A DNA stretch of 64,000 nucleotides, from contig JBGSXW010000005.1 of assembly GCA_041751215.1 (NCBI GenBank), forward strand, positions 195,664-259,663, given 5' to 3'. The notes below the pieces were generated by a model. It was given only the letters and a program-made list of their open reading frames with translations. It was not told the origin of the DNA and made no database searches. Positions 1,956 through 47,806 of the stretch are shown in pieces. The position numbers and the translations under genes are program-made. Position 1 is the first letter of the stretch. Each line of letters begins with the position of its first letter. This stretch comes from Candidatus Saccharimonadales bacterium. GTDB lineage: Bacteria > Patescibacteriota > Saccharimonadia > Saccharimonadales > JBGSXW01.

Positions 1956-2060
1956 TGCTGAGCGCCTCCTATTTTATTCATTATCTCACAAAACCTTGGT
2001 GTAGCTATGACTTGAGCCGCCATAGGAGGATGAGCAAAGTGCGCGGCTAGAAGTCGGTAT

Positions 2061-2825
2061 TTATGGCCGCAGCGTTCCTGCAAAAACCTGCCAAGCCAAT
2101 AATGACTTAGCGACCAGACTCAGAACAATATAAGCGTATTCACCGTAGATATAGTTTTTCCAGCGCCCAACCTGTTTGTACTGGAGCGCCATATTAATTG
2201 CAAAGCAGTTAAAGAAAAGGAATATGGATACAAATATCCAGTAAACAAACGTCGGCGCACTACTACCGTTGCTCGAGCCTAGCCAAAGGTAAAATGCGAT
2301 TACCAGCCAAGGGACAGCTCCTGCTAGACACCCAACCCAATAACTCAGCCAGTTCGTCTTTTTTGTTGATTGATTGTGAACTTCCATGACAAGTCCTAGT
2401 AAGTTCATAACTGCAACCAACGCAAACAACATCAAAAGACTCATGGCATCGTATACCCCAACAAGCAGGGCAATTGCGACGATCATGACACTTGCTGAGA
2501 GCGAGTACTCAACCCAGCGCGCAACGTTCATGCCGCGCGCAAGCTGCTCGTTATACTTCTTGTTATAAACAGTAGCGATACTAAAGTGCGCAGCCGAAGA
2601 CAAAAACAAAAAGATAGCGATTAAAATAGGTAGTGAAATATCAAAAAGAATCGTTGTTGCTGGCTCCAGAGTTTCGCTTGCCTGGTTGTATTCAAGAAAA
2701 CTACCGCTAACCGGAAGGGTAAAACTTTTGCTGAGCACAAGAATGGCAAAGCCCTGAACAAGGTGTAAAAACCCCGCAATAATATTAAGTTTGCGCAAGG
2801 ACGCTGGGTTAGGTGAGGTTTTCAT
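2061..2825 (-). CDS. heliorhodopsin (7-TM retinal protein)
   Basis: 254 aa with 7 predicted TM segments. It aligns by eye along its whole length with characterised heliorhodopsins. Shared motifs are GFLHLVQ, AAHFS, RWVEYSLSASVMIV (counter-ion Glu), FLFFNCFA, and C-terminal YIVLSLVAKSLLAWQVFAGTL with the Schiff-base Lys (K240 of this ORF). The promoter is leaderless: TATAGT (rc 2832..2837), 6 nt, then ATG. Confidence 0.85.
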   Translation of the reverse strand: MKTSPNPASLRKLNIIAGFLHLVQGFAILVLSKSFTLPVSGSFLEYNQASETLEPATTILFDISLPILIAIFLFLSSAAHFSIATVYNKKYNEQLARGMNVARWVEYSLSASVMIVAIALLVGVYDAMSLLMLFALVAVMNLLGLVMEVHNQSTKKTNWLSYWVGCLAGAVPWLVIAFYLWLGSSNGSSAPTFVYWIFVSIFLFFNCFAINMALQYKQVGRWKNYIYGEYAYIVLSLVAKSLLAWQVFAGTLRP

Positions 2826-2892
2826 ACTTAAACTATAGCACTGAGTTTGGGTGCGCTTTATATAACGGTGCAGCCTAAGGTAATATGTGTTT

Positions 2893-3204
2893 ATGGCTCA
2901 AAAAACAATTTCTGCCGGTGTCGCGCACAAACTTCCAGACGATATGAAGAGTGCTCTTAATTCTGCGCCAAAAGCCCTAAAAGCCTGGGAAAGCCTTACA
3001 CCGCTTGCTCGCAATGAGTGGATTTGCTGGAATATTACCGTCAAACAAGCCCACACAAGAGAAAACCACATCAAGCGAACAATCACAGAATTACAAGAAG
3101 GTAAGCGCCGGCCTTGTTGCTGGCTGGGTTGTATTCACCGAACCGATAAGCCAATAAACGCAACTCAAAAATGGATGCTGAGTAGGCAAAAGAAGAGTAG
3201 TTAG
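2893..3204 (+). CDS. YdeI/OmpD-associated (OmdA-domain) family protein
   Basis: LTPLARNEWICWNITVKQAHTRENHIKRTITELQEGKRRPCCW resembles the YdeI/OmdA domain. The ORF track starts at GTG 2887. TAATAT (2881..2886)-N6-ATG 2893 fits the leaderless pattern better. Confidence 0.55.
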   Translation: MAQKTISAGVAHKLPDDMKSALNSAPKALKAWESLTPLARNEWICWNITVKQAHTRENHIKRTITELQEGKRRPCCWLGCIHRTDKPINATQKWMLSRQKKSS

Positions 3205-3207: not shown

Positions 3208-3789
3208 CTAACTAATCTGTAGTTTAAAGTCTTTGGTGCCGTCAATAACGATGTCGGAGGTTTCTAGCGGGCGAAACTTTTTAATATGGGCGTCCTCTGC
3301 TGGTTGCCAAACTTCCTTCCACGATCTATAGCCTTGCTCTAAGGGCATTTCGTCCCTTTCTTGCCCGCGCTGCAAGGCCAAGTCGGCAGGTGCCTCTACC
3401 CAGATTTTAATATCCCAGTCTAGATCAACGGCAAATATCAAGTTTCGTTCAATTATCAAACCGTCACCGATAGTTAACTGTCTTTCTGTGATATGTGGGG
3501 TTTTGTGCCAGTCGTACGGTCGGTAAGCGATAGAGCGCTCGTGCTTTTGTAAGTGCGATACGACATCATTATGGAATCGTTCGTCGTTAAACGAACCAAA
3601 GGCGATGGTATTTTCGTCTGGCTCAAAGTAATCATCACCATTAATTACGGTAAAGTTTGGCAGAATCTTGGTTACGTACTCTGTGAGAGTAGTTTTTCCT
3701 GCCCCGCCCCGACCATCAATAGCAACCAGATAGTACTTGCCATTTTTGGGCGGGTTTTTGTGTATAGTCTTTTTTAAGTCAGTAGCCAT
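3208..3789 (-). CDS. P-loop NTPase/kinase (uridine-kinase-like)
   Basis: Walker A is LVAIDGRGGAGKTTL. The start was moved from 3813 to the ATG at 3789, which is preceded by TATTAT-N6 (rc 3796..3801). Confidence 0.6.
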   Translation of the reverse strand: MATDLKKTIHKNPPKNGKYYLVAIDGRGGAGKTTLTEYVTKILPNFTVINGDDYFEPDENTIAFGSFNDERFHNDVVSHLQKHERSIAYRPYDWHKTPHITERQLTIGDGLIIERNLIFAVDLDWDIKIWVEAPADLALQRGQERDEMPLEQGYRSWKEVWQPAEDAHIKKFRPLETSDIVIDGTKDFKLQIS

Positions 3790-3847
3790 TGGGTAATAAT
3801 AACAAAAAGGCATTTCTGCTCGTTCATGGTCTTGTGTGTTTGAGTGA

Positions 3848-4331: not shown

Positions 4332-4406
4332 TGGCTCCGGAGGCCGGACTCGAACCGGCAGCCCTCTGATTAACAGTCAGATGCTCTACCATTGAGCTAC
4401 TCCGGA
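4332..4406 (-). tRNA. tRNA-Asn (anticodon GUU)
   Basis: A manual 75-nt cloverleaf reads TCCGGAG TA GCTC AATGGTA GAGC A TCTGA CTGTTAA TCAGA GGGCT GCCGG TTCGAGT CCGGC CTCCGGA G CCA. Confidence 0.9.
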
Positions 4407-4657
4407 TTACCAGAATTGTTAATAATTCCTTTTACGAACTGTCGTCCTCTGAAGCTTTTGAGTTGATTTTCGCGCTGTATGGCTGCCTGGCGGGTAGGTT
4501 GTTCTTCTTGATAGATTAACGTCCAGTTGCCCTTTTGCGCCGTGAAATGTTTTTCGCGCTTTGCCCTATGTTCGGATAGACGACGTTCAATGTTTGAGGT
4601 CTGACCGATATAAATGCTTTGCGTTAGGTCATTGTATATAACGTAAACAATAAACAT
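4397..4657 (-). CDS. GIY-YIG nuclease family protein (small stand-alone type)
   Basis: 86 aa. VYVIYNDLTQSIYIGQTSNIERRLSEH gives the GIY...YIG and Arg motifs, and a later RENQLK supplies the Glu. The last 10 nt including the TAG stop lie inside the 5' end of tRNA-Asn. Confidence 0.8.
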   Translation of the reverse strand: MFIVYVIYNDLTQSIYIGQTSNIERRLSEHRAKREKHFTAQKGNWTLIYQEEQPTRQAAIQRENQLKSFRGRQFVKGIINNSGNPE

Positions 4658-5459: not shown

Positions 5460-6431
5460 ATGGATCCAAACAATCAAACCCCTGCGCCGCTAACACCGGA
5501 GCCTCAACAGCCAATGCAACCGCAGCAGCAACCGGCTTCGCCGCCAGATTTTTCTCAAGCTCCACAACCGATGCCTCCACAGGCACCAGCAGCACCTCAA
5601 CCAATGGGAGTCCAGCAGCCTCCAACCCAACAGGTGGATTCGTTTAATCAGCCTCAGGCAACTCCTCCTCAGCCTATGCCCTTGCCTCAGCCGGTCATGC
5701 CGCCACAGCCACCAGCCCCAATGCAACCCCAGCAACCCCCGCAACCATTTACGCCTGATCCGCTGCCGATGGCTCCAGCGCCAAGCAGTGGCGGACTCGG
5801 TAAAATGCCCTTTATCATCGGTGGGGCAGTGCTTTTACTGATTGTCATTGCCTTGGCGGTGTTCTTTTTAGTATTTCAGTCCGATGACTCATCCGGAAGC
5901 TCAAATAGCGAACAACCAGCTACTACAACTACCGATGAATCAACCGACCCAATCGAAGAAGAGCCCGAACCAACCAGCCACTTTATTTCCCAGCCTTGCT
6001 TTACATTCGAAATGCCTCTAGAGGTAAAACCAGACGAAAAAGCTCAGCGCTGTCGAGCACGGGCCTTAGGTCCGCTGGTGTTTGAGATTGTCTTGAATGT
6101 AGATGGCCGGAATTTTGTCGGCGCTAGAAATACTCCCAAGGCCATAATTGATGACTGGATGAACACCAAACAGCGATCGTCGTTCACAAGAACTTTAAGT
6201 AAAAAAACCATTAGTCTTGACGGCATGAAGGCAATCGAGCTGATAGTTAATGATTCAATTTACAAGCGCAAGGATTTTTTCATCGCCGTTGATGTATCCA
6301 AGAAGAACTACCGCAACAACCGCGGAGCAAAGATACCGGTGATGATCATTAACGGTGTTTATGATGACCCTGACCAGCCTGAATTAAAGAAAATTCTGCC
6401 ACTACTTAAACAAACCTGGACCTGGAAGTAG
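5460..6431 (+). CDS. Pro/Gln-rich membrane-anchored protein, unknown function
   Basis: 323 aa. The first ~110 aa are a P/Q-rich low-complexity region. A single TM segment (MPFIIGGAVLLLIVIALAVFFLVF) and an acidic S/T linker follow. The globular C-terminal domain has no motif I recognise. Confidence 0.5.
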   Translation: MDPNNQTPAPLTPEPQQPMQPQQQPASPPDFSQAPQPMPPQAPAAPQPMGVQQPPTQQVDSFNQPQATPPQPMPLPQPVMPPQPPAPMQPQQPPQPFTPDPLPMAPAPSSGGLGKMPFIIGGAVLLLIVIALAVFFLVFQSDDSSGSSNSEQPATTTTDESTDPIEEEPEPTSHFISQPCFTFEMPLEVKPDEKAQRCRARALGPLVFEIVLNVDGRNFVGARNTPKAIIDDWMNTKQRSSFTRTLSKKTISLDGMKAIELIVNDSIYKRKDFFIAVDVSKKNYRNNRGAKIPVMIINGVYDDPDQPELKKILPLLKQTWTWK

Positions 6432-9501: not shown

Positions 9502-10092
9502 ATGGAAGAGAAAAAAAGCAAAGTTGGAATTCTCAGCGGAACTTTTGATCCAGTCCACGACGGACACATTGCTCTAGCTGATAACGCCGCACACCAACTA
9601 GGCTTAGAAAAAGTCATCGTACTCGTTGAGCCCAAGCCTCGCCACAAACAACGCACCACTAAATACGCACACCGACTGGCTATGACTAAGATTGCGACCG
9701 GTTCGCAAAAATTTATATCGGTCCATGAGGCATCTGCGGGTGATCAGCATTCGGTCGAGCACACGCTAAAGTATCTACACTCTCGCTTTCCTGACTCGGA
9801 GCTGATAATGATCATGGGCGGTGATGTTTTTGAATATCTTCCAAAATGGGACGGGCAGGATGAGCTCAAGCAGCTAACTTTTGCGGTCGGACTACGGACT
9901 GAGGACGACGGCGAATTGGCGGTTTCAATTGCGGCTGAGAACGGCTACAAACTTAAACTTATTCAGACCGAACTCCCAAGGATTAGTTCCAGTCATATCC
10001 GCGATCTGATTAAAAGCGGTGAAAAGCCGGGACACTTAAGTCCAAAAGTCTTTGAATACATAAAGAAGCACAATCTGTATGACGGTTCATGA
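9502..10092 (+). CDS. nadD: nicotinate-nucleotide adenylyltransferase
   Basis: GILSGTFDPVHDGHIALA gives the (T/H)xGH nucleotidyltransferase motif, and the C-terminal ISSSHIR is typical of NadD. Confidence 0.85.
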   Translation: MEEKKSKVGILSGTFDPVHDGHIALADNAAHQLGLEKVIVLVEPKPRHKQRTTKYAHRLAMTKIATGSQKFISVHEASAGDQHSVEHTLKYLHSRFPDSELIMIMGGDVFEYLPKWDGQDELKQLTFAVGLRTEDDGELAVSIAAENGYKLKLIQTELPRISSSHIRDLIKSGEKPGHLSPKVFEYIKKHNLYDGS

Positions 10093-10570
10093 CTCAACCA
10101 AACCAGCTCTGCGCGAGTACTACAGCGAAATGCGCCGTGCTCTTAGTCACTACCAAGTTGAAGCCGCCAGCTTGAGTGTCTTATCTAAGCTTAAAACTGC
10201 ACTTGATTGGACTAAGATTAAGTCAGTTCATGTCTACCAGGCAATTCCGCGCGAGAATGAAATTAACACACAAAAGTTTCAAGAATGGTTAACTGCGAAT
10301 CAGTCGCAAATAAAGATATATCACCCCGAAGATTCTCTAGACTTGCCGGAAGTTGATGTCGTTATTTTGCCAGTTATTGCTTTTGACGAGCGTGGCCATC
10401 GCTTGGGCTTTGGCGGCGGCACTTACGATAAGTGGCTAGCAAGTTCTAGGGCAATCAAGATTGGCTTGGCCTACCAGTTTGCGCGGGTGCCTAATACCCT
10501 GCCCGCCGAACCACACGATCAAAAACTCGATCTTATTATTACCGACCAGCGACTTCACACAATTGACTAA
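10079..10570 (+). CDS. 5-formyltetrahydrofolate cyclo-ligase
   Basis: VILPVIAFDERGHRLGFGGGTYDKWL is the family signature. Overlaps nadD by 14 nt. Confidence 0.8.
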   Translation: MTVHDSTKPALREYYSEMRRALSHYQVEAASLSVLSKLKTALDWTKIKSVHVYQAIPRENEINTQKFQEWLTANQSQIKIYHPEDSLDLPEVDVVILPVIAFDERGHRLGFGGGTYDKWLASSRAIKIGLAYQFARVPNTLPAEPHDQKLDLIITDQRLHTID

Positions 10571-10630
10571 ACCTCGGTAATATCGTAGAATAACTCCTAC
10601 ATTTGTCGTATCGATTAAGGAGTGTGACAG

Positions 10631-11026
10631 GTGAGCACATCATCAGCTGAAGTGGATGTACTGCACCTGCAGGCAACCATCCTCTACGCCCCAAGCAGCC
10701 CAGCCGACGAACGCGAGTTCCGAACTGCAATTGCTGCGGTAGCTGCAAGTTTCGGCGCAGACCAGCGAGTCGGCCCCGCTCGAGCCAACGTCCCCCGGGT
10801 GCTGGCCGAGATCGATCCAAGCAAGACCGTTCTCGACCATTCGACCCAGGTGCTGCGTTTGCGAACTGCAACCAGAGATGCTCTCGATCTGAATCAGATC
10901 TTCACGGTTCGTGAACTTTTGAGTCGCACCGAGAAGCAAACGCTGGCGTTGCCGTACATCGGTCCGGTTCGAATAGAAGAGATCAAGAAAGCTCTGATGT
11001 TGTTGGAGCTGGAACTCCCAGAGTAG
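10631..11026 (+). CDS. stand-alone RNA polymerase alpha C-terminal-domain (HhH)-like protein, copy 1
   Basis: 131 aa. C-terminal LRLRTATRDALDLNQIFTVRELLSRTEKQTLALPYIGPVRIEEIKKAL follows the alpha-CTD helix-hairpin-helix pattern. AAGGAG SD with a GTG start. The region is visibly more GC-rich than its flanks. Confidence 0.55.
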   Translation: MSTSSAEVDVLHLQATILYAPSSPADEREFRTAIAAVAASFGADQRVGPARANVPRVLAEIDPSKTVLDHSTQVLRLRTATRDALDLNQIFTVRELLSRTEKQTLALPYIGPVRIEEIKKALMLLELELPE

Positions 11027-11588: not shown

Positions 11589-13268
11589 CTAATCATGGTG
11601 TGATTGTAGATATTCCAGATGCTTCTCGCGCTGCTTTTTGAATTCGCTCTTTCGTAGGCCGTTCTTTTTAACGAAGGCGCTGATTTTTTCGCTTCCTAAG
11701 TAATGAGGCATCATTACGTAAGTTGCGCCGGCTTCGTAAAGCTCCGAAGCTTCGGTTGCCGAATCGGAGTGACAAACGGTTACCGCATGTGGGTTAACGG
11801 CCGCCAAATGCTTTATTAAGAATAGGTTCGTTGAGTGATCGGTTATAACCGAAACAACCAACTTGGATTTACTTAACTGGAGTTCTTCCAAAAACTCTGG
11901 ATCCGTAGCATCGCCGTACATATAGTGAGCTCCGGCGTGCTCTAGGCTATCGATTGCTTCTGGGTCGTAATCTACCACTACATACTTACGGCCCATTCCT
12001 TTAAAGGTACGCAGGAATTCATTGCCGCCGCGTCTGAATCCAAACAACACTAGGTCGTATTGATGCGAGTCCGTGCGCTCACTTCTGGTTTTGCGTTTCT
12101 CAAAAAGCTGTAAGTATTTTTCTAGGAAGTTATAGAGCGAATCGCTGTAAATAATCATGTATGTAGAGACCGCGATTGTAATTAAGGCAACTAGGGTCAC
12201 CAAGGCAACGGCTTCGTCGGTAACTAGTGCTCCTCGTTGGGCTAGCAAAATTAATACAAGCGAGAATTCACTGATTTGTGCCACCGCAAGGCCGGCCTTA
12301 AAGGCGGTCTTTTTGGTGTAGCCGAGCATGCCCATAATTCCCATAACTACAATTGGGTTACCGATTAGTACCAAGGCCGACAACACTATCGCTGGCACCA
12401 TGACGGCACCGAGGCTATCAAACTCTAATCTTGCTCCTAACACAATAAAGAACACAACTAAAAAGAAGTCGCGCAGCGGACGAAGACGAGATCCAATTTC
12501 GGCAGCATAGGGCAGGGGCGCCAGTGTAACACCGGCAATTAATGCTCCAACTTCGATTGAAAACCCAGCGTTTGCAAACAGAGAAGCAATTCCAAATCCC
12601 CAGCCAATAGCAAACAAGAAGAGCAGCTCCTGGTTTTTGCTAACGTGGCCAACAAGTTTAGGCAAGATCTCGATGCTAACTATTGCCAGCAGCGCTGCCA
12701 TCCAAGTGCCTTTAACAATTAGTGCCACTAATTCAGGCGTACTGATTCCACCGCCCTCGCTAGCAGCCGAGGTTACAAGTAGGGCAAAGGTAGCCACCAA
12801 GTCTTGAACCAATAAGAAGCCAATCGAAATTTTTGCGTAAAGGCGAGTCTGCTCGTGTTTGTCCGAGATCAACTTTAAAACGATAATCGTGCTACTAAAG
12901 GCCAGCGAAATTCCGACAAACAAAGCAATAATGTGCTCGTAGCCTAGAGCGCGCGTCAGGGCGTATCCAATAGAAGTTGTAAAGGCAATCTGGCCAATTC
13001 CGGTGAACAGCGCAACCTTGCCGACTTCCTTAACTACCTGAGGGTTTAAGCCGAGGCCAATAATAAATAGCAGCAGAGCAACCCCGAGGCTGGCGAACGT
13101 ATCAACGGTTGCCTCAGAATGAACCAGGTCAAGCAAGGCCGGCCCAACAATAACGCCGGTTACGATGTAGCCAATAATAAGTGGCTGCCGCAAAACCCTA
13201 ATAATTATCGACACAACAGTGGCAATGGCTAGGATAAGGCTAATTTCTAAAAAAGCGTCGTGTTCCAT
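11589..13268 (-). CDS. monovalent cation:proton antiporter-2 (CPA2, Kef-type) with a C-terminal TrkA-N/RCK domain
   Basis: 559 aa. About 12 TM helices have a Na+/H+-exchanger-type layout. A C-terminal Rossmann-like segment (YDLVLFGFRRGGNEF) follows. Confidence 0.85.
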   Translation of the reverse strand: MEHDAFLEISLILAIATVVSIIIRVLRQPLIIGYIVTGVIVGPALLDLVHSEATVDTFASLGVALLLFIIGLGLNPQVVKEVGKVALFTGIGQIAFTTSIGYALTRALGYEHIIALFVGISLAFSSTIIVLKLISDKHEQTRLYAKISIGFLLVQDLVATFALLVTSAASEGGGISTPELVALIVKGTWMAALLAIVSIEILPKLVGHVSKNQELLFLFAIGWGFGIASLFANAGFSIEVGALIAGVTLAPLPYAAEIGSRLRPLRDFFLVVFFIVLGARLEFDSLGAVMVPAIVLSALVLIGNPIVVMGIMGMLGYTKKTAFKAGLAVAQISEFSLVLILLAQRGALVTDEAVALVTLVALITIAVSTYMIIYSDSLYNFLEKYLQLFEKRKTRSERTDSHQYDLVLFGFRRGGNEFLRTFKGMGRKYVVVDYDPEAIDSLEHAGAHYMYGDATDPEFLEELQLSKSKLVVSVITDHSTNLFLIKHLAAVNPHAVTVCHSDSATEASELYEAGATYVMMPHYLGSEKISAFVKKNGLRKSEFKKQREKHLEYLQSHHD

Positions 13269-13312
13269 GGTTCTTAAGCTTAAGCATACCCTCTTAAGCT
13301 AATAGATGGCAA

Positions 13313-13852
13313 CTAGCCAGTGGTGCCACTTAAGGCCAAGCCAGCAACAAGTCCAACATTTATCACTAATCCACCCATTATGATTAACTCCAACGCTTCG
13401 GTAAGTGGCTCCTTGCGCTTTAGCCAATAGCCGCGGGTCATTCCAATTGCAAACAACAACATTAAAGTGATGGTTACAACTTGAAGCAATGCCGTTTCAA
13501 GTCGAGGTGAGTAGACTAACGGTAGCAAAATAATTACACCACCGATTGCATGGGTAATAAACTGAGCGAATCCGTCTACCATTGGCTTACGGTAGCCATC
13601 TCGCTTGTCGCTATGATCAAGTGCGTCCTCGATTCTTTGGGCGGAAACGCGTGCCATAGAGCTATTAAAAGCCTGCACTAACATTGTAAGCAGCGCGGCT
13701 GTCAGAATAAAACCACGGTTTAGTGTTCCGGTTAACATACCCGCTACGATTCCGGCAGTGGTTGCCAAACCACCCTCCAGGCCACTCATTAATGACACAA
13801 AATATTCGGAGTCAATATTCAGGACTTTTTTTGATTTTCGTCTTATTCTCAT
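13313..13852 (-). CDS. VIT1/CCC1-like membrane protein (tentative)
   Basis: 179 aa. SGLEGGLATTAGIVAGM plus three further TM helices resemble the VIT-family C-terminal domain. The assignment is weak. Confidence 0.45.
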   Translation of the reverse strand: MRIRRKSKKVLNIDSEYFVSLMSGLEGGLATTAGIVAGMLTGTLNRGFILTAALLTMLVQAFNSSMARVSAQRIEDALDHSDKRDGYRKPMVDGFAQFITHAIGGVIILLPLVYSPRLETALLQVVTITLMLLFAIGMTRGYWLKRKEPLTEALELIIMGGLVINVGLVAGLALSGTTG

Positions 13853-13917
13853 ATCGCAAAATACTCCACCCTACTATACACTAGGCCCTAGAACGCTTAC
13901 TTCGACAAAAGCTAGTT

Positions 13918-14847
13918 ATGATCAAATATTTATACAAAACCGTCCGAAGTAAGGGCTTAGAAAAGCCTGAAAAATACAAACCCGGCTCGTGGGTTTATGT
14001 TGAAGACCCAACAAACGATGAAATAAATCACCTGATCGAAGAGTATGGTTTAGACCGCGGATTAGTTGCAGATGCGCTAGACGAAGATGAAATGCCTCGC
14101 ATGGAGCACGAAGGCGATTTAACTTATATCTTTGTTCGCTATGCCAGACGTGACGATGAACTGCAGATCTCGACCTCTCCGTTATTGTTCGTAATCGGCG
14201 AAAAGCTGCTTATTACTTTAGCGCTTAATCCCATGCCGCGACTGGATCGTTTTGAAAACGGCAAACTAGACTTTAACACTACGCAACGAACCAAATTGGT
14301 TTTGCAGATTATGGATCAAATTGTCGATCAATACGAAGTCTTTTTGAATAATATCTCCAGGCAGATTAAAACCATTCGTTCTAGGCTAAGAGTTGAAGAA
14401 ATTCGCAACCAAGACTTTATTAATTTTGTAGTTATTGAAGACGAACTCAACGAGTTCTTGTCAGCCCTAACTCCCACCAACGCCATTTTGCGGCGCCTGC
14501 TGCTGGGTAAACATCTTAAGCTTTATGCCGATGACGAAGATTTGGTTGAGGATCTTTTACTCAACAACGAACAATCGATTGAAGGCTGTAAATCTAGCCT
14601 TAAGTCGATCGTTAACATCCGCGAAGCGTACTCAACGATCATGTCTAACAATCTAAACCAAGTGATCCGAGTTCTAACAGTCATAACCGTTATTATTGCC
14701 GTGCCAACACTTATTACCAGTGCTTATGGCATGAACGTTCATTTGCCGTTTGAAAACTCACCGATTGCCTTTGTGGGCGTTATGACGATAACTTTTGTGC
14801 TGGCGCTGCTGATTTTAGCAGTCTTTAAGCGCAATAAGTGGCTCTGA
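13918..14847 (+). CDS. corA: CorA family magnesium/cobalt transporter
   Basis: 309 aa. The YGMNV (GMN) motif sits between two C-terminal TM helices, after a large cytoplasmic N-domain. Confidence 0.85.
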   Translation: MIKYLYKTVRSKGLEKPEKYKPGSWVYVEDPTNDEINHLIEEYGLDRGLVADALDEDEMPRMEHEGDLTYIFVRYARRDDELQISTSPLLFVIGEKLLITLALNPMPRLDRFENGKLDFNTTQRTKLVLQIMDQIVDQYEVFLNNISRQIKTIRSRLRVEEIRNQDFINFVVIEDELNEFLSALTPTNAILRRLLLGKHLKLYADDEDLVEDLLLNNEQSIEGCKSSLKSIVNIREAYSTIMSNNLNQVIRVLTVITVIIAVPTLITSAYGMNVHLPFENSPIAFVGVMTITFVLALLILAVFKRNKWL

Positions 14848-14851
14848 CAAA

Positions 14852-15012
14852 AGCACCTTTTCAAAAAGGTGCTCCAAAACTTTTACGCTGCTGTAAAAAC
14901 GCTCTTGATCTCGCTCGAGACAAAACTCGGGCAACTGCGGAATCCGTCTGAACAGTCCTCGTCGCGCCGGGCCTTGCTCTCACGGTCTCAGAGGTTTTTT
15001 ACAGATGCGTAA
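14852..15012 (+). repeat. structured intergenic repeat, copy A (divergent)
   Basis: H1 is GCACCTTTT-CAAA-AAGGTGC. The long hairpin has outer arms CTGTAAAAA/TTTTTACAG and a conserved apex TGCGGAATCCGTCTGAACAGTCCTC. It starts 5 nt after the corA stop. Confidence 0.7.
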
Positions 15013-15109
15013 GTGCACAAGCCGGCCGGCTTGTGCATGATTGCTGAAAAGAAGGTCAGAGAGTAGCTATGCTATTGCTGCAAAAACAGATCAAAGCTAG
15101 GCGGGTGAC

Positions 15110-15138
15110 TTGACACTGCTTAAGCAATTTGAGAGAAT
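15110..15138 (+). promoter_or_regulatory. sigma70-type promoter candidate
   Basis: TTGACA (15110..15115), a 17-nt spacer, then GAGAAT (15133..15138). Confidence 0.4.
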
Positions 15139-15224
15139 CTCACTCGTTGCTCAAAAAGTCTTAGAGAGACGATTGGGAACATAAAAACAATCAAAACAAA
15201 TAATTTCCGAGGAGGAATTTAACC

Positions 15225-15329
15225 ATGCCAATTGAGGTAAGGGATTTATCTTTGCGTGCCCGACGCGTAAACGTTGATGTAAGAATGCCAGAGTGGCGCG
15301 AGTTCTTAGTAATAGAACACGCCACATAA
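15225..15329 (+). CDS. candidate 34-aa small ORF
   Basis: The ATG is preceded by GAGGAGG 8 nt upstream. The peptide is MPIEVRDLSLRARRVNVDVRMPEWREFLVIEHAT. It is below the ORF-track size cut-off and no homology can be assessed. Confidence 0.25.
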   Translation: MPIEVRDLSLRARRVNVDVRMPEWREFLVIEHAT

Positions 15330-15416
15330 TAGGAGTACGAACGGTAGTTATAGTCTTTGTCCAATCTGCTTGATGTCAATCAAGTGCTGTAAGCGCGCAC
15401 CTGCTATCATTGAGTA

Positions 15417-16181
15417 ATGATTAAAGAGTGTAAAAATCGGCACAATCAAAAAATAGTCTTTGAGCTGAGTGGTGACTTAAGTTCGGACAACTTAGTGTTT
15501 ATTGTCCATGGGCTCGGTGGTTCAAAGGATCAAAAACATATCCAGACAATCAGCAAAGCCTTTGTTGAGGCTGGATTTAAAGCTGTCGCAGTTGATACTA
15601 CAACCGGCTTTGGCGATAGCGAAGGCGACACAATAAATGTCAGTGCCACTAGCTACTTGCAGGATCTAGAAGACGTCGTAAGTTTTGCTCGGACGCAAGA
15701 TTGGTTTAGAGAGCCCTTTGTGGTTGCTGGGCATAGCTTAGGTGGAATAGCGACTTTGCTCTACGCCAATAACCATCCAGAACAAGTAAAGGGCATCTTC
15801 CCAATGAGCACGGTTGTATCGGGCAAATTATGGCGCAGCGGTAAGTCCGAGGCAAAGTTTGATGAGTGGGAGGCTCAAGGTTACTTTCTTAAAGTTAGTA
15901 AATCAATGCCAGGTCGTTCGGGGAAGATCGGCTATGGTTTAGCGCGTGATCTCGACAAGATAGATTCTCTAGAGTTTGCACCAGACATTAAATGTCCGGC
16001 GTTGCTGATAGTGGGATCAGAAGACCCAGGCACCACGCCAGCTATGCACGAGATGTTGTTTGCAAAACTTGGCGGACCTAAAGAACTCCACCTGATCGAT
16101 AAAATGGGGCACGATCCAACGTTGCAAACCGAATTAGATGAATTAACTCAGCTAATAGTTAGCTGGGCTAAGAAACTTTAG
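15417..16181 (+). CDS. alpha/beta hydrolase
   Basis: 254 aa with the GHSLGG nucleophile elbow and a C-terminal His (MGHDP). Leaderless context: TATCAT (15405..15410)-N6-ATG. Confidence 0.8.
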   Translation: MIKECKNRHNQKIVFELSGDLSSDNLVFIVHGLGGSKDQKHIQTISKAFVEAGFKAVAVDTTTGFGDSEGDTINVSATSYLQDLEDVVSFARTQDWFREPFVVAGHSLGGIATLLYANNHPEQVKGIFPMSTVVSGKLWRSGKSEAKFDEWEAQGYFLKVSKSMPGRSGKIGYGLARDLDKIDSLEFAPDIKCPALLIVGSEDPGTTPAMHEMLFAKLGGPKELHLIDKMGHDPTLQTELDELTQLIVSWAKKL

Positions 16182-16184
16182 TTG

Positions 16185-16823
16185 TTAGAGCGCCTCGTCG
16201 ATTAACTGGTTCCAAGCCTCTAGAGTTTGTGGAATGTCACTAAGCTGTTCGCCGTTTAGAATAAAGCTTGGTGTTCCAGTAATGTTCAGACTTTGCCCAC
16301 TTTTCATATCTGCCGAAATGCGCTGGAATGTACTTTCATCGGCTACATCTTGGCGGAATTGCTCGAGATTAAGTCCAAGCTCGTCGGCGTAATCTTCAAA
16401 AATTGATGCCGGGTTGGGGCTGCTTGCCCAAAGATCTTGCTGTTCGTAGAGCATATCGTGCATTGGCCAAAACTTTCCTTGTTTGTGCGCAGCCTCGGCA
16501 GCGCGGTGCGAAGCCATGGCGTTGGCGTGGATGCTAGTTAGCGGGAAATGTCTAAATATTACTGTTAAATCCTCGGCGCGGTCGGCTTCTAGCTGTTTAA
16601 TTATTGGGTAGATTGATGCACAGCCTGGGCACTGAAAGTCACCGTATTCAATTAAGACTACTGGGCCGTCACCACGTTTGTGGTCCTGTTGCTGTGCGAC
16701 CTTTGCGTCTTCGTAAGCAAAGTCGCCCGGGTTGGTAGTTTGCTCCTCACCGCCAAAGACAAAGAAAACCCCGATCATAAGAGCCATTACTCCAAGTAAT
16801 ACTAACCAAAAACCTTTTTGCAC
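16185..16823 (-). CDS. DsbA-family thiol:disulfide oxidoreductase, membrane-anchored
   Basis: An N-terminal TM segment is followed by a thioredoxin fold with FQCPGCA (CxxC). AAAGGAGG SD with a GTG start. Confidence 0.8.
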   Translation of the reverse strand: MQKGFWLVLLGVMALMIGVFFVFGGEEQTTNPGDFAYEDAKVAQQQDHKRGDGPVVLIEYGDFQCPGCASIYPIIKQLEADRAEDLTVIFRHFPLTSIHANAMASHRAAEAAHKQGKFWPMHDMLYEQQDLWASSPNPASIFEDYADELGLNLEQFRQDVADESTFQRISADMKSGQSLNITGTPSFILNGEQLSDIPQTLEAWNQLIDEAL

Positions 16824-16914
16824 TGAGAACCTCCTTTATTGCCGTACTATCATAACATTTTAACTAGGCGACAAACACAAGCAACTAAGCGCTTCTGGTG
16901 TATGATTAGCTTGT

Positions 16915-17949
16915 ATGATGTTTATCCTTACCACGCTAGCTTTACTGGCACTTTTAGCAACTGCGACTTTGGCTACTGCCATGCAAATTGGTGTGCTTGG
17001 CGTAAGTCGATACGAGCTAAAACGTCGAAGTGAAGAAGGCGATGAAGAAGCGCGCTTAGTCTACCCACTCCGCAGTCGAAGCGGAGAACTAGTTACGCTA
17101 CTAACTTTAAAGAAGGTTTTTACCGAAGTTCTGTTCGTTGTCTTGCTGGCTTGGTGGCTTCCGGGAAGCAATATATTTACCTCGTTTCTTGCAATCGTAA
17201 TTGCCTCTGCAACTCTGGCAGCCATTGTTGAACTACTGCCTAGGGCTTGGCTTAAGCCATACGGTTTTAAGTTGGCTGCGCGCACAGCACCAATGGTTGT
17301 TTACGGCATGGATTTGATCAAGCCACTGAGCCTACCGGTAGTAAACAAATTTGGGATCGACGAACCCGATGGTCCAGAAGTTCACTCGGTCGAGGAACTA
17401 GTAGACATAATTAGCAACCGACGCACTCGTAAAGAGACAAAACTCGACGCGCAGCAAATTAGTGTCATCCAGGGAGCTTTGGGTTTTGGCACAATGGCAA
17501 TCCGGGAAATCATGACCCCGCGCAGTGTTATAACCGCCATTGATCAAAAAACTGAGCTCAATACTGGCCAGCTCAAAAAACTTCACGATAGTGGACATTC
17601 GCGGTTTCCGGTGTTTGAAGAATCCATTGATCACATAGTCAGCATCCTCTATCTTCACGACCTAGTGAGTTTGCGCCAAGAGCACATCACGGCTCGACAA
17701 GCTGCTAAAGGAAAGGTCTATTACGTTAACGAGGACGAAAACCTCGAGCATGTTTTAAACGCTTTTATCAAAACTCGCCATCATTTATTTATCGTTGTTA
17801 ATGAGTTTGAGGAAGTAGTCGGCCTAGTAACTATCGAGGATGTGCTTGAGCAAATTCTTGGTCGCAAGATCGTTGATGAGTTTGATAAGTACGATGATCT
17901 TCGTGAGGTTGCCGCTAAACGTAAACCTCAGGGCCAAAAGGCCACCTAA
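16915..17949 (+). CDS. CNNM/DUF21 transmembrane domain plus CBS-pair protein (HlyC/CorC family)
   Basis: 344 aa. About 4 N-terminal TM helices are followed by IREIMTPRSVITAID and VGLVTIEDVLEQI, typical of tandem CBS domains. Confidence 0.8.
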   Translation: MMFILTTLALLALLATATLATAMQIGVLGVSRYELKRRSEEGDEEARLVYPLRSRSGELVTLLTLKKVFTEVLFVVLLAWWLPGSNIFTSFLAIVIASATLAAIVELLPRAWLKPYGFKLAARTAPMVVYGMDLIKPLSLPVVNKFGIDEPDGPEVHSVEELVDIISNRRTRKETKLDAQQISVIQGALGFGTMAIREIMTPRSVITAIDQKTELNTGQLKKLHDSGHSRFPVFEESIDHIVSILYLHDLVSLRQEHITARQAAKGKVYYVNEDENLEHVLNAFIKTRHHLFIVVNEFEEVVGLVTIEDVLEQILGRKIVDEFDKYDDLREVAAKRKPQGQKAT

Positions 17950-23303: not shown

Positions 23304-23346
23304 TAAGGAGAAAATGCACCGGACCGAGTAATGATAGAATAAGGGT

Positions 23347-23637
23347 ATGTCTAAGCTACTAGCAGCAGATGAAATTCAAACGAACTTGGCGAAGCTTGAT
23401 CTTGAATGGGCAACACCTGGGCAAGCTACACTAACCCGAGTTTTTAACTTCGATGACTTTAAGCAAGCTTTAGCCTTTGTAAATAAAATCGGGGACCTGG
23501 CCGAAGAGCTAAACCACCACCCAGACATTGAACTTAACTACGGTAAAGTGGTAGTTAACTTGACTACTCATAGCGCCGGCGGTTTAACGAGCAAGGACTT
23601 CGAGCTAGCCAACCAGATTGATCAGCTGGTAAGTTAG
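23347..23637 (+). CDS. phhB: 4a-hydroxytetrahydrobiopterin dehydratase (PCD/DCoH)
   Basis: 96 aa. ELNHHPDIELNYGKVVVNLTTH is the family signature. Leaderless context: TAGAAT (23335..23340)-N6-ATG. Confidence 0.85.
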   Translation: MSKLLAADEIQTNLAKLDLEWATPGQATLTRVFNFDDFKQALAFVNKIGDLAEELNHHPDIELNYGKVVVNLTTHSAGGLTSKDFELANQIDQLVS

Positions 23638-23822: not shown

Positions 23823-23920
23823 CTTACCCTCACTTAGTTTGGTTAATTATATAACTAATTATATAACTTTCAAAACTCTCGGTTTTAACTTATGCGCACA
23901 GACTTTGCTATAATTTCAAC

Positions 23921-24247
23921 ATGAGAGAAGTAGTAAAAGTTGCAGTAACAGTACCCGAAAAGGACGCCGATAAACTTAGACTGGCTATCGGCAACGCCGG
24001 AGGCGGTGCAATTGAAGATTATTCTCACACTAGTCTTTCTGTTAAAGGTGTAGGTCGTTTTAAGCCGCTTGATGATGCAAACCCGACCATCGGCAAGTCT
24101 GGCAAGTTTGAAGAAGTAGCCGAGGAAAGAATTGAAGTCACTTGCTTTAAAGACGAGCTAAGCAAAATTATGCAGGCAATTAGAGACAACCACCCCTACG
24201 AGGTGCCAGTGATCGACGTCTATCCTTTACTGGCAATTAACGAATAG
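23921..24247 (+). CDS. stand-alone NIF3-insert (PII-like, COG3323-type) domain protein
   Basis: KVAVTVPEKDADKLRLAIGNAGGGAIEDYSHTSLSVKGVGRFKP...HPYEVPVIDVYPL follows the pattern of the insert domain of NIF3/YqfO proteins. Confidence 0.55.
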   Translation: MREVVKVAVTVPEKDADKLRLAIGNAGGGAIEDYSHTSLSVKGVGRFKPLDDANPTIGKSGKFEEVAEERIEVTCFKDELSKIMQAIRDNHPYEVPVIDVYPLLAINE

Positions 24248-30231: not shown

Positions 30232-31014
30232 ATGACTAAAAAATCAAGCAAATCGGCCAAGCGTGACGTCGTAGTTGTTAAAGATCTTAAGAAGACCTAC
30301 GGCAAAAAAGACGTCGTTAAGGGTGTTAGCTTCTCGGTTCATGAAGGCGAAATCTTTGGAATTCTTGGCCCGAATGGGGCGGGTAAAACGACTACGCTTG
30401 AGATGATCGAAGCTTTGCGTCCGATCGATGGCGGCTCGGTTACGCTAGCTGGGATCGATGTAGCGGCAAATCCAATGGCCATTAAGGAAGTAATCGGCGT
30501 CCAACTTCAGGCCAGCGCTTTCTTTGAAAAGCTCAATCTTATCGAACAGCTTAATATGTTTGCCGCGCTTTACGGTGATACCGTTGACCCTAAGCAGCTG
30601 CTCGAAGAGGTCCAGTTAAGCGACAAGGCTAAGAGCTACGTTGAAACCATGTCCGGTGGGCAGAAGCAACGTTTTAGCATTGCCAGTGCACTTGTTCATA
30701 AGCCTAAAGTGCTGTTCCTAGACGAGCCGACAACTGGGCTGGATCCGCAGGCTCGGCGAAATCTCTGGGACCTTATCAAGGGCGTAAAAAAGAAGGGCAT
30801 CACCGTCATCATGACCTCTCACTACATGGAAGAAGCGCAGCTGCTCTGTGACCGTGTGGCAATTATGGACGATGGCAAAATTGTTGCGCTCGATTCGCCG
30901 TCTAAGTTGATCAAAGACCTGCTAGATTCTGGCTTTAAGAAATCCCAGCATGTAGAACAGGCCGATCTAGAAGACGTATTTATTCAGCTGACGGGTAAGG
31001 ATCTGAGGGAATAG
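30232..31014 (+). CDS. ABC transporter ATP-binding protein (ABC-2/DrrA-like)
   Basis: Walker A is GPNGAGKTT, the signature is MSGGQKQR, and Walker B is LFLDEPTTGLD. TATACT (30217..30222) lies 9 nt before the ATG. Confidence 0.9.
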   Translation: MTKKSSKSAKRDVVVVKDLKKTYGKKDVVKGVSFSVHEGEIFGILGPNGAGKTTTLEMIEALRPIDGGSVTLAGIDVAANPMAIKEVIGVQLQASAFFEKLNLIEQLNMFAALYGDTVDPKQLLEEVQLSDKAKSYVETMSGGQKQRFSIASALVHKPKVLFLDEPTTGLDPQARRNLWDLIKGVKKKGITVIMTSHYMEEAQLLCDRVAIMDDGKIVALDSPSKLIKDLLDSGFKKSQHVEQADLEDVFIQLTGKDLRE

Positions 31015-31015
31015 C

Positions 31016-32125
31016 ATGACTAGGCGATATCTAATCGGCGTAAGATCGTTAACCATCTCTTACATAAAGCGCTTTTTCCGCGACAAAATCGCGCTATTCT
31101 TTGTGTTTCTTTTCCCGCTGATGTTTTTGCTAGTTTTTGGCGCGCTCAACCGCGATGAAGGCGGCATTAGTTTTGAAGTGGCGTTGATTAACAAGTCTCA
31201 GAGCCAATTTGCTACGGAATTTGTAGCTAATTCCAAGGAGTCAACATCGCTCAAACTAAACGAGGAAATAACCGATATCGAGGACGCCAAGGAACGCATG
31301 GGCCGCGGCGAGCTTGATAGCATCATTGAGCTACCAGAGACTTTCGGTAATCCAAACACTGATGGCCTGCCGAGTGGCGAGATGATCGTTTACTACGAAG
31401 AGGCTAACCCTCAAACAGGCAAAACACTCGCTTCGGCCCTTCAAGGCGAGTTAGACGTAATTAACCGCAAACTAACTAAGGTTAAAGATCCGTTTGTGGT
31501 TAAAACTCAATCGACGGCAACCGCTAACCTGAGTTCGTTTGACTATGTATTCTCGGGCTTGCTTGGATTTTCATTGCTTAGCCTTGGGATCTTTGGAATG
31601 GCCAACAGCTTTCCGGCCGAGAAAAAGACTGGCGCCCTGCGTCGACTACGCGTTGCACCAATCGGCGCCTCGCAGCTTATTTTTGCAAACGGACTAAGCT
31701 ATCTGGTTAGTGGTCTGCTCAGTGCAGCGACTATGGTGATAGCGGCGTTGGTGATCTTTGATTTCAATATGCGCGGCGATTATCTGAGCTTGTCGTTGTT
31801 TGTGATTATCTCAATTGTGATGTTGTTTGGTTTCGGTCTAGCCATTGGTGGTTGGGCAAAGAACGAAAACCAAGCCGCACCACTTAGCAATATCGTCGCC
31901 TTTCCAATGATGTTCTTGTCGGGAGTCTTTTTCCCTCGATTCTTGATGCCAGAATGGCTGCAAATGGTTACCGATTATCTGCCTTTAACTCCAGTTGTCG
32001 ATGGCTTACGCGAGATAACTGCCGAGGGAGCAACAATTCTTGACCTCGGGCCAGAGTTGGCAATTATGGCGGGCTGGATTTTGGTTATTTACTTTGTTGC
32101 TATTCGCGTCTTTCGCTGGGAGTAG
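31016..32125 (+). CDS. ABC-2 type transporter permease
   Basis: 369 aa with an N-terminal TM segment, a large loop and 5 C-terminal TM helices. It starts 1 nt after the ATPase gene. Confidence 0.85.
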   Translation: MTRRYLIGVRSLTISYIKRFFRDKIALFFVFLFPLMFLLVFGALNRDEGGISFEVALINKSQSQFATEFVANSKESTSLKLNEEITDIEDAKERMGRGELDSIIELPETFGNPNTDGLPSGEMIVYYEEANPQTGKTLASALQGELDVINRKLTKVKDPFVVKTQSTATANLSSFDYVFSGLLGFSLLSLGIFGMANSFPAEKKTGALRRLRVAPIGASQLIFANGLSYLVSGLLSAATMVIAALVIFDFNMRGDYLSLSLFVIISIVMLFGFGLAIGGWAKNENQAAPLSNIVAFPMMFLSGVFFPRFLMPEWLQMVTDYLPLTPVVDGLREITAEGATILDLGPELAIMAGWILVIYFVAIRVFRWE

Positions 32126-33368: not shown

Positions 33369-33385
33369 GTTGGTAAAATTATCTA

Positions 33386-34258
33386 ATGAGCGAACAGTGG
33401 CGCTTTATAGATCCCAACTTTGAGTTAGCCGAGGCAATCGACGGCTTTGAACTCGTGGTTCATCCTAGTGAGACTGTTTTTAGACCTAATGCCGAACTTT
33501 TGCCGGATAGCGAAGTCGATGAGCGAGCAGTCATAGACGCGCTAAACGGAGTGGAATATGCTGTCGCGACTCCCGATGCTGGATACCGTTTCTTAGGTAA
33601 TCGAGACCTGCCTCACATACGAAACATGGCAGCCTACCTAGAGGGTTCAAGAAAGCGAGCCGCTAAGGATCTTGACCAAGATTATGATTCCGATCGTATC
33701 TGGAACAATCAGCAAGCAGCCGAGCGATCAGTTAGGCGCTTCCACCAAGATGACCTTTCCATGCGAGGTTTAGCTGCCCAGTGGCAGCACGATTTACTAT
33801 TTGAAGCTATTTGGTCTTTTGATGATAGAACCAAAACGCAAACGGATACCAGCGAAGCAAAAACTAGGCCTCGCCCAGAGGGCTACAACCTAGAAGAGCT
33901 CATCGGTATAGAGCTCATCAGGCGCATGCTCAATGACTTTAATGACGCCGCAGCTCGGCGTCCTTCGGCCCGTGACGAGCAGTTTGTTAACAAAGAAAAC
34001 CTTAGCCTGTTAGAGCGAGGCTTAAATCAGGCGGTTGCCCTTAATGATCTTGATATGCTAATGAGATTTAGTACTGTAGCTATGGCCCACTATGAAAAGA
34101 AAGCTCGGTGCATATACCTGGAACTGGTTCGCTTAACAGATTCTCGCAAAGGCGGCACTGAGCGACGAAGTCCAGAGGTCAGAGAAGCAGTGTTCTTGTA
34201 TCAGCAGGAACGCCAGCATGTGCGAAGGCAAGTTCCCTCTCGGTATAGCGCATCATAA
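33386..34258 (+). CDS. hypothetical cytoplasmic protein
   Basis: 290 aa, charged and helical. No motif recognised. Confidence 0.45.
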   Translation: MSEQWRFIDPNFELAEAIDGFELVVHPSETVFRPNAELLPDSEVDERAVIDALNGVEYAVATPDAGYRFLGNRDLPHIRNMAAYLEGSRKRAAKDLDQDYDSDRIWNNQQAAERSVRRFHQDDLSMRGLAAQWQHDLLFEAIWSFDDRTKTQTDTSEAKTRPRPEGYNLEELIGIELIRRMLNDFNDAAARRPSARDEQFVNKENLSLLERGLNQAVALNDLDMLMRFSTVAMAHYEKKARCIYLELVRLTDSRKGGTERRSPEVREAVFLYQQERQHVRRQVPSRYSAS

Positions 34259-34900: not shown

Positions 34901-34961
34901 GAGCACTATGTTACCATGCTTATGTATTACAATAGTAGCGATAATCAGGGGAGAAGCAGCG

Positions 34962-35180
34962 ATGCAGAAGCACTTTGAAGCATTGTCACAGCGACACATG
35001 ACTCGGAGAGAATTTCTCCGCAACGTAGGCTTAGTCACATTATCCATTATTGGCGTCGGACGCTTCATAAAGTATTTGGACCAGCCTGGAAAAACTCCAA
35101 GCGGCCCAACAAGAGGCTATGGGCGCAACTCGTTTGGTGGCCGCGGCCGCAAAGCCGTCAAAGCCCAGTCAAAAACTTAG
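34962..35180 (+). CDS. small protein with an RR-containing hydrophobic N-terminus and a Gly/Arg-rich tail
   Basis: MQKHFEALSQRHMTRREFLRNVGLVTLSIIGVG looks like a twin-arginine-type signal. The start choice is uncertain (34962 or 34998). Confidence 0.35.
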   Translation: MQKHFEALSQRHMTRREFLRNVGLVTLSIIGVGRFIKYLDQPGKTPSGPTRGYGRNSFGGRGRKAVKAQSKT

Positions 35181-39461: not shown

Positions 39462-39473
39462 GCATCCACCGAT

Positions 39474-41859: not shown

Positions 41860-41865
41860 GCTACT

Positions 41866-47797: not shown

Positions 47798-47806
47798 GGA
47801 ATAGCC

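Follow-up and report, generated by a model that had tools for sequence, protein, structure and literature searches.

Two questions are raised by a stretch of DNA from a Candidatus Saccharimonadales bacterium: whether one of its open reading frames (ORFs) encodes a genuine heliorhodopsin (HeR), and what such a protein does in a cell where no genes for retinal synthesis lie nearby. The whole stretch, which we call the window, is 64,000 nucleotides long (contig JBGSXW010000005.1), and the ORF in question occupies positions 2061 to 2825 on the minus strand, where it encodes 254 amino acids from an ATG start; the positions include the stop codon. A preliminary description, made from the letters alone, had quoted four motifs for this ORF and had left out its strand. 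All four motifs are present in the translation, that is, GFLHLVQ (containing H21), AAHFS (H80), RWVEYSLSASVMIV (E106) and SLVAKS (K240). We verified the key codons in the raw sequence: H21 is CAC at 2765-2763, H80 is CAC at 2588-2586, E106 is GAG at 2510-2508, and K240 is AAG at 2108-2106. The codon of S236 lies at 2120-2118.

The ORF is a genuine, intact and canonical prokaryotic HeR of the Saccharibacteria, which belong to the candidate phyla radiation (CPR; Patescibacteria). The Pfam scan of the ORF gave a single match, to the heliorhodopsin family PF18761, with an E-value of 3.8e-97 and a score of 324.8 bits against a gathering cut-off of 26.7 bits, and this match extended over the full profile (1-242 of 242). 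The NCBIfam equivalog NF038020, named heliorhodopsin HeR, scored 336.3 bits against the window protein, while its cut-off is 100 bits. Both profiles thus confirm the identity that the preliminary description had proposed. When the protein was compared with the sequences of the PDB by phmmer, the best match was the archaeal TaHeR (6IS6/7U55; E 4e-81), and the next was the actinobacterial 48C12 (E 7e-61). The protein does not belong to the type-1 rhodopsins (Bac_rhodopsin, PF01036): no Pfam match to that family was obtained, the lysine motif is SxxxK and not DxxxK, and the topology is opposite.

The AlphaFold2 model of the protein, calculated with 35 homologues, had a predicted local distance difference test score (pLDDT) of 82 and a predicted template modelling (pTM) score of 0.80. 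The model consists of seven helices (residues 7-31, 65-84, 101-121, 127-153, 159-186, 191-217 and 225-249), and a long beta-hairpin (36-64, with strands 36-47 and 52-64) occupies the A-B loop, which is the first outward-facing loop. A Foldseek search with this model gave template modelling (TM) scores of 0.86-0.88 for TaHeR (0.88 for 6IS6, with 54% identity) and 0.80-0.84 for 48C12 (42-44% identity). The type-1 rhodopsins stood far lower, with TMq values of 0.51-0.67 and identities of 9-19%. The hydropathy scan also revealed seven hydrophobic segments. The loops on the N-terminal side of the membrane hold 12 Lys and Arg residues in total, and those on the opposite side hold 2. Because of this difference, the positive-inside rule predicts an inverted protein whose N-terminus is cytoplasmic and whose C-terminus is outside. 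The inverted topology given in the preliminary description is therefore borne out as a prediction.

The functional residues were examined by aligning the window HeR with TaHeR column by column. The Lys, Glu and His residues named earlier hold under this alignment. That is, the Schiff-base K240 and S236, which form the SxxxK motif (SLVAK) of helix 7, correspond to K238 and S234 of TaHeR, the single Glu counter-ion E106 in helix 3 corresponds to E108, and the His pair H21/H80 of helices 1 and 2 corresponds to H23/H82. Also conserved are Q215 and E229, which correspond to Q213 and E227 of the cytoplasmic-side hydrogen-bond network of TaHeR. The Schiff-base Lys is invariant among the CPR homologues (79 of 79). 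Over 17 functional positions, the window HeR carries the commonest signature, common to 34 of these 79 homologues, and its key residues are invariant or modal. The cytoplasmic loops are positively charged in the window HeR, with K89, K90, R97 and R103 in intracellular loop 1 (ICL1) and K217, R221 and K223 in ICL3.

In the same comparison we observed a sub-clade of nine CPR HeRs (loci L064, L068, L070, L071, L072, L077, L078, L080 and L081) in which Phe replaces the helix-1 His, the residue at H21 of the window HeR and H23 of TaHeR. The sub-clade retains the equivalents of H80, E106, S236 and K240, and the HeR lies at about 10001-10770 in most of its loci. All nine loci possess a conserved ORF of about 178 amino acids directly upstream on the same strand, without obvious annotation (for example, 9386-9922 in L071).

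A lateral fenestration leading to the retinal pocket has been described for TaHeR, and it involves Y164, C168, G171, F203, N204 and A207 (bioRxiv 10.1101/2025.11.27.691015). In the sequence alignment, the corresponding set of the window HeR (Y162, C166, G169, F205, N206 and A209) is identical to that of TaHeR. Another set of positions concerns ion transport. The preliminary description stated that HeRs have no demonstrated ion pumping. This statement is outdated for viral HeRs, some of which transport protons (PMC9448325), and it suits the window protein, which is without their hallmark residues. The hallmark of the proton-transporting V2HeR3 is the pair E191 and W195 in helix 6, which corresponds to I199 and F203 of TaHeR (PMC9448325). 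The window HeR has I201 and F205 at these positions. Ion transport by the window HeR is therefore not expected, because the Glu/Trp hallmark is replaced by Ile and Phe.

Taken comprehensively, the window HeR resembles TaHeR (Thermoplasmatales archaeon SG8-52-1; PDB 6IS6, 7U55 and 7CLJ) most plainly. The two proteins are identical at 134 of 246 aligned positions (54%), and TaHeR has the same residues at H23/H82/E108/S234/K238, at Q213/E227, throughout the fenestration set and at I199 of the transport-hallmark site. They differ in that the host of TaHeR is archaeal whereas that of the window HeR is bacterial (CPR), and in that the window HeR has a four-residue insertion in the outward E-F loop (GSSNGSS, compared with ISAES in TaHeR). 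The founding actinobacterial HeR 48C12 (PDB 6SU3 and 6UH3) shares the fold and the catalytic residues, but it is more distant from the window HeR than TaHeR is. This means that the HeR clade of the Saccharibacteria is not a recent copy of that actinobacterial reference. V2HeR3 and the related proton-transporting viral HeRs share the fold, the counter-ion Glu and a Glu equivalent to E229, whereas E191 and W195 of V2HeR3 are Ile201 and Phe205 in the window HeR (PMC9448325). The type-1 DTS proton pumps of the Saccharibacteria, called SacR, come from the same phylum, and a similar lateral opening has been proposed for the entry of retinal into them (PMC9296517). SacR depends on externally supplied retinal, and the same may hold for the window HeR. 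In contrast, SacR belongs to the Bac_rhodopsin family, has the opposite topology and the DxxxK motif, and pumps protons. As compared with the catalogued HeRs of Saccharimonadia and other CPR bacteria (PMC9166423, PMC8612252), the window HeR has the same lineage, the same SLVAK motif in helix 7, the same inverted topology and a similarly reduced genome. It shows no difference of kind from them and is a further species-level variant.

The relatives of the protein agree with this placement. Of the 8,000 candidates scored in a search of 5.8 billion proteins, 7,408 matched at E <= 1e-20. The identical sequence is already present in NCBI-derived collections, where it lies on a contig of 261,825 bp, and in Logan. 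The best 120 matches listed were 72-82% identical to the window HeR, and the named ones among them are entered as "heliorhodopsin HeR [Candidatus Saccharibacteria bacterium]" or as Patescibacteria. The best 80 loci from GTDB species representatives come nearly all from metagenome-assembled genomes (MAGs) of Saccharibacteria, Saccharimonadales, Berkelbacteria, Dojkabacteria, Kerfeldbacteria or unclassified Patescibacteria, and the HeR of the best representative is 79% identical. The window itself resembles a reduced CPR genome: many of its genes are small and without a Pfam family, one protein is type IV pilin-like, secreted or anchored proteins occur in tandem families, and there are only three tRNAs and no rRNA. 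The reduced-genome context named in the preliminary description is thus consistent with the closest named relatives, which are MAGs of Candidatus Saccharibacteria or Saccharimonadales. We also considered a recent horizontal transfer of the gene from Actinobacteria and rejected it, because the identity with TaHeR (54%) exceeds that with 48C12 (44%) and the composition is not anomalous. The GC content is 44.4% in the HeR gene and 46.9% in the window, and the GC content at third codon positions (GC3) is similar to that of other genes.

A considerable part of this picture was known before. HeRs are restricted to monoderms and a sensory hypothesis has been put forward for them, and Patescibacteria are among the phyla for which HeR neighbourhoods have been described (Bulzu et al. 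2021, PMC8612252). Chiriac et al. (2022, PMC9166423) screened 1,326 CPR genomes and found HeRs mainly in Saccharimonadia, where they occurred 80 times; SLVAK was one of the commonest helix-7 motifs. The window HeR is a typical member of this documented clade, and the finding is correct but ordinary and already known. The novelty implied by the preliminary description does not stand, because HeRs in Saccharimonadia, the rarity of blh beside HeR genes and the scavenging of retinal by Saccharibacteria had all been published (PMC9166423, PMC9296517, bioRxiv 10.1101/2021.02.16.431466).

If the protein is a HeR, where does its retinal come from? Every ORF of the window of at least about 100 amino acids was assessed, either by a direct Pfam scan or through the precomputed Pfam matches of the corresponding Logan contigs (run SRR28170463). 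These contigs also reach past the window, by about 8 kb on the left and about 3.4 kb on the right, so that about 75 kb was covered in all. In the 64 kb and the flanks of about 11 kb, we found no member of the phytoene synthase, phytoene desaturase, lycopene cyclase, polyprenyl synthase or beta-carotene dioxygenase (BCD/Blh) families. A direct scan of the unannotated ORFs of membrane-protein size (5460-6431, 33386-34258, 34286-35068, 37715-38593 and 60004-60972) gave no match at E <= 0.001. The earlier remark that no crt or blh genes occur in the 64 kb was therefore right.

This situation has parallels. Saccharibacteria with type-1 rhodopsins have no blh and live alongside blh-carrying Actinobacteria, and it has been proposed that their retinal is derived from the host (Jaffe et al. 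2022, PMC9296517). TaHeR, as cited in the same paper, takes up exogenous retinal fast through its lateral opening, and its host is also without a pathway. Chazan et al. (2021, bioRxiv 10.1101/2021.02.16.431466) reported that blh rarely accompanies HeR genes, and they raised the possibility that some HeR-bearing bacteria have a retinal pathway of an unknown kind. Because of the fast uptake by TaHeR, the Saccharibacteria that have no blh beside blh-carrying Actinobacteria, and the rarity of blh with HeR genes, loading of the window HeR with exogenous retinal is plausible.

The expression of the gene was considered next to its structure. On the coding strand, the sequence upstream of the HeR reads CTCAG TGc TATAGT TTAAGT ATG, and no purine-rich Shine-Dalgarno sequence occurs between the -10 hexamer and the ATG. 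The TATAGT-N6-ATG layout of the preliminary description is present as it was given, with TGc preceding it. A scan for the sigma-70 consensus passed over this promoter, as it has no -35 match, and the extended -10 element was found by a dedicated pattern. The window holds 8 matches to the pattern TGNTANNNT-N6-ATG where 1.88 are expected, none of 100 shuffles reached 8, and all 8 coincide with ORF starts. Other genes of the window have clear AGGAGG-type ribosome-binding sites; that is, the genome mixes leaderless genes of the extended -10 type with AGGAGG-led ones. This type of promoter is a habit of the genome and is not peculiar to the HeR gene.

Comparison with related loci gave the same picture. 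Many of the closer Saccharimonadia HeR genes are preceded by (G)CTTATGnTATAnT-N6-ATG, which contains a TRTG "-16" extended -10 element at a position that fits a leaderless transcript. In the related CPR HeR loci, a -10-like TAnnnT stands 4-9 nucleotides before the start in 36 of 79 cases and a Shine-Dalgarno sequence is found in 31 of 79; the more distant HeR genes, of Berkelbacteria and others, mostly have a Shine-Dalgarno sequence instead. The placement of the extended -10 element predicts a leaderless HeR mRNA, and this prediction is well supported because the same layout recurs in related HeR genes. In the literature searched, we found no description of leaderless transcription in Saccharibacteria.

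The preliminary description had also called the gene monocistronic. The leaderless part of that statement agrees with the comparative data, whereas the monocistronic part is unproven, because the PhnB-like gene, which shares the strand, lies only 105 bp further downstream and nothing resembling a terminator separates the two. Neither a consensus scan nor RNA folding revealed a terminator-like structure in this gap (z = 0.02), and the sole terminator-like match on the minus strand (2111-2090) falls within the HeR coding region. A monocistronic HeR gene is likely, and co-transcription with the PhnB-like gene is possible. In the gap we noticed an 8-nucleotide anti-Shine-Dalgarno sequence, CCUCCUAU (2022-2029, minus strand), which is perfectly complementary to the ribosome-binding site AUAGGAGG of the PhnB-like gene 50 nucleotides further on (1965-1972). 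The two pair in the predicted fold, whose energy is no better than that of shuffled sequences (z = 0.02), so the pairing may be due to chance; otherwise it might form a hairpin sequestering the Shine-Dalgarno sequence.

By Pfam, the neighbours of the HeR gene belong to PF06983, OmdA, AAA_18 and rhodanese. We compared the neighbourhood with the 80 related CPR loci by two methods, namely tblastn with 13 neighbours from the window and all-versus-all clustering of the ORFs within 4 kb of the HeR. The rhodanese gene is the sole window neighbour that recurs near HeR genes: tblastn found it in 6 of the 80 loci, within 3 kb in 5 of them, and clustering found it in 6 loci including the window. Homologues of the PhnB-like gene were found in 2 of the 80 loci, in one of these within 3 kb of the HeR, and a YdeI/OmdA homologue was near the HeR in 1. 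Every ORF family within 4 kb of the HeR was limited to at most 15 of the 80 loci. The families that do recur (ABC ATPase, MsrA-like in 8 loci, thioredoxin-reductase-like in 7 loci, and nuclease-like) are confined to sub-lineages and absent from the window locus; the MsrA-like, thioredoxin-reductase-like and nuclease-like labels come from reading the sequences and not from hidden Markov models. We therefore rejected a dedicated operon partner for the HeR, since no window neighbour is conserved in the 80 loci apart from the rhodanese gene in 6. The description of the neighbours as unrelated small enzymes, PhnB-like and YdeI-like, agrees with these results, as PF06983 and PF13376 were confirmed and neither gene is conserved with the HeR. 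In published surveys, just 38.6% of HeR genes stand in one operon with a neighbouring gene (PMC11109279), so that a stand-alone HeR gene is the common case. Nowhere in the 64-kb window did we see a member of the glutamine synthetase, photolyase, DUF2177, DegV or histidine-kinase families, and the one ABC transporter of the window (ABC_tran and ABC2_membrane, 30232-32125) lies about 27 kb from the HeR.

We think that the window HeR is probably a slow-cycling, non-transporting photosensor or regulator, charged with exogenous retinal and working through a partner encoded elsewhere, and not an energy transducer. This reading is the best supported because the pocket and the counter-ion are identical to those of TaHeR, the N-terminus is predicted to be inside, the cytoplasmic loops are charged, the transport hallmark is absent, and no retinal pathway is in view. 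The mechanism may be as follows. The all-trans retinal bound by the apoprotein would come from other organisms, actinobacterial hosts being a plausible source, and would enter through the fenestration. The charged protein would absorb green light and pass through a slow photocycle without net ion transport. A long-lived intermediate would then alter the positively charged loops ICL1 and ICL3, and the altered loops could modulate a partner protein, in the cytoplasm or the membrane, whose gene lies elsewhere in the genome. Regulation of partners through cytoplasmic loops has been shown for other HeRs, the partners being glutamine synthetase, a photolyase and an ABC exporter.

Several points weigh against a photosensor of this kind. 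The photochemistry and the partner-regulation step are what we infer for the window HeR, and its lateral opening is deduced from residue identity with TaHeR. No spectroscopic or functional study of a CPR HeR was found in the literature searched. None of the published partner classes (glutamine synthetase, photolyase, multidrug-resistance (MDR) ABC exporter, DUF2177/DegV and histidine kinase) adjoins the HeR, and none of its neighbours is conserved across the 80 loci. As for the exogenous supply, about 75 kb of the genome was inspected, and an endogenous or unconventional retinal pathway elsewhere is possible.

This last point leads to the rival explanation that the cell makes its own retinal, by genes outside the window or by an unrecognized pathway, and that the missing crt and blh genes are a sampling effect. 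The limited extent of the inspection (64 kb and about 11 kb) and the argument of Chazan et al. for an unknown pathway in some HeR-bearing bacteria (bioRxiv 10.1101/2021.02.16.431466) speak for it, but high-quality genomes of rhodopsin-bearing Saccharibacteria have no blh (PMC9296517), and we consider it quite unlikely. To our knowledge, moreover, CPR genomes are broadly without carotenoid biosynthesis, which we count against it too. Conversely, one can take the lack of the chromophore pathway as meaningful in itself. The HeR of an obligate epibiont would then be photoactive only when charged with retinal from the host or the community, perhaps together with a xanthophyll antenna, so that it would report light and the availability of chromophore or host at once and control some process related to episymbiosis through its partner. 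The two observations behind this idea are that no retinal genes were found and that the fenestration is intact, and we regard it as rather unlikely. A related explanation holds that the HeR has two antennae, with an exogenous xanthophyll at the fenestration, or that it transports protons, and thereby aids energy conservation in a cell with few routes to a proton gradient. The carotenoid-site motif is indeed complete in the window HeR, with the aromatic pair Y162/F205, the small residues C166/A209, and G169, and proton transport by some viral HeRs (PMC9448325) lends the energy role some credit. However, that motif occurs in 91% of HeRs and carotenoid binding is based on docking alone (bioRxiv 10.1101/2025.11.27.691015), and the Ile/Phe pair in place of Glu/Trp is also that of the non-transporting TaHeR, no HeR of this type having been shown to transport (PMC9448325). 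The chance that this explanation is correct appears small to us.

The neighbourhood could also be given more meaning than we give it. On that account, the HeR is co-transcribed with the PhnB-like gene of VOC fold and switches that enzyme or its pathway on in the light, or it takes part in the defence against oxidative or electrophile stress induced by light. The common strand, the gap of 105 bp and the lack of a terminator-like hairpin in it fit the former version, but the PhnB-like gene has its own Shine-Dalgarno sequence, and just 1 of the 80 loci has a homologue of it within 3 kb of the HeR. For the latter version, Bulzu et al. reported glyoxalase-type, glutaredoxin and catalase genes beside HeRs and proposed a role in oxidative stress (PMC8612252), Chiriac et al. 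extended this idea to CPR bacteria (PMC9166423), and the MsrA-like and thioredoxin-reductase-like genes recur within 4 kb of the HeR in subsets of the 80 loci; those genes are nevertheless absent from the window locus, and their recurrence within sub-lineages may reflect inherited synteny. We find this account improbable as a whole. By far the least credible explanation is that the gene was acquired recently by horizontal transfer, or is a relic in decay that has no function in this host. The gene does stand alone, without conserved neighbours, but its ORF is intact and every functional residue is kept, it has more than 7,000 relatives, with the named ones among the best matches listed (72-82% identical) in the same lineage, its GC content (44.4% versus 46.9%) and GC3 are ordinary, and its promoter is typical of the lineage and is kept in relatives. 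The photosensor with an exogenous chromophore thus remains the reading that we prefer.

As a discovery, the window HeR carries little weight. The identical protein is public, the NCBI HeR equivalog names it, and earlier papers cover its distribution in the lineage, SLVAK, the missing blh and the idea that retinal is scavenged. Its value is practical: it is a clean and typical CPR HeR, with the modal signature, 54% identity to a solved structure and a simple stand-alone gene. We therefore think that it is a reasonable, though not special, candidate for expression and partner pull-down in studies on the role of HeRs in minimal-genome cells. The coordinates of the gene, its promoter and its neighbours are listed in Table 1.

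Table 1. Positions in the window of the HeR gene, its predicted promoter, further sites of the same pattern, and adjacent genes
Feature	Position	Strand	Basis and remarks
Heliorhodopsin (HeR) coding sequence	2061..2825	-	Pfam, NCBIfam, phmmer against PDB, AlphaFold2 model with Foldseek
Extended -10 element TGcTATAGT	2832..2840	-	Read from sequence; hexamer 2837-2832, TG 2840-2839; 6 nucleotides before ATG
TGNTANNNT-N6-ATG sites	2823-2840 (HeR), 3787-3804, 50100-50117	-	Pattern match at ORF start
TGNTANNNT-N6-ATG sites	15402-15419, 23332-23349, 23906-23923, 33371-33388, 41851-41868	+	Pattern match at ORF start
PhnB-like / 3-demethylubiquinone methyltransferase-like (VOC-fold), 152 amino acids	1497..1955	-	Pfam PF06983, 146.6 bits; own Shine-Dalgarno sequence
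YdeI/OmdA-family gene, divergent neighbour	2887..3204	+	Pfam PF13376, 58.6 bits

The YdeI/OmdA gene probably starts with the ATG at 2893, in front of which stands TAATAT-N6. As a candidate for a second rhodopsin, we looked at the other ORF of 254 amino acids in the window (15417-16181), and rejected it as an alpha/beta hydrolase.

Some other features of the window were observed in passing. A cluster concerned with ion homeostasis (11589-17949) comprises a Na+/H+ exchanger with TrkA_N, VIT1, CorA and CNNM/CBS genes. At the far end of the window there is a P-type ATPase of the Ca/Mg type (61079-63808), and together these make much cation transport for a reduced genome. An ORF of 86 amino acids (4397-4657, minus strand) overlaps the 5' end of the tRNA-Asn gene (4332-4406, minus strand) by 10 nucleotides. 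It resembles a GIY-YIG nuclease by motif reading, and NCBIfam matches it weakly, at 25.7 bits where the cut-off is 56, to a group I intron endonuclease. Beyond the right end of the window, at a distance of about 2-3 kb, the matching Logan contig carries genes for a phage-type integrase and an excisionase-like HTH_17 protein (L085, 138-1563), which suggests an integrated element nearby.

Several proteins of the window that seem to be secreted or anchored have no Pfam family. Four tandem paralogues of 182-202 amino acids lie at 47189-49516 on the plus strand; the first three are 31-39% identical, and the proteins have in common a basic N-terminus together with an anchor that ends in (F)xYRSQAA(T)HV. 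Two adjacent paralogues on the minus strand (40448-41098 and 41116-41730) are 78% identical and have signal-peptide-like N-termini and Thr/Ser-rich repeats. Beside this pair, the region 38679-40385 encodes two secreted proteins with weak Ig-like or glucodextranase-B-like domains. Finally, the ORF at 5460-6431 (plus strand, 323 amino acids) encodes a protein with a Pro/Gln-rich N-terminal half containing PQQP/PMQP repeats, a membrane anchor and a globular C-terminal domain, and it likewise belongs to no Pfam family.

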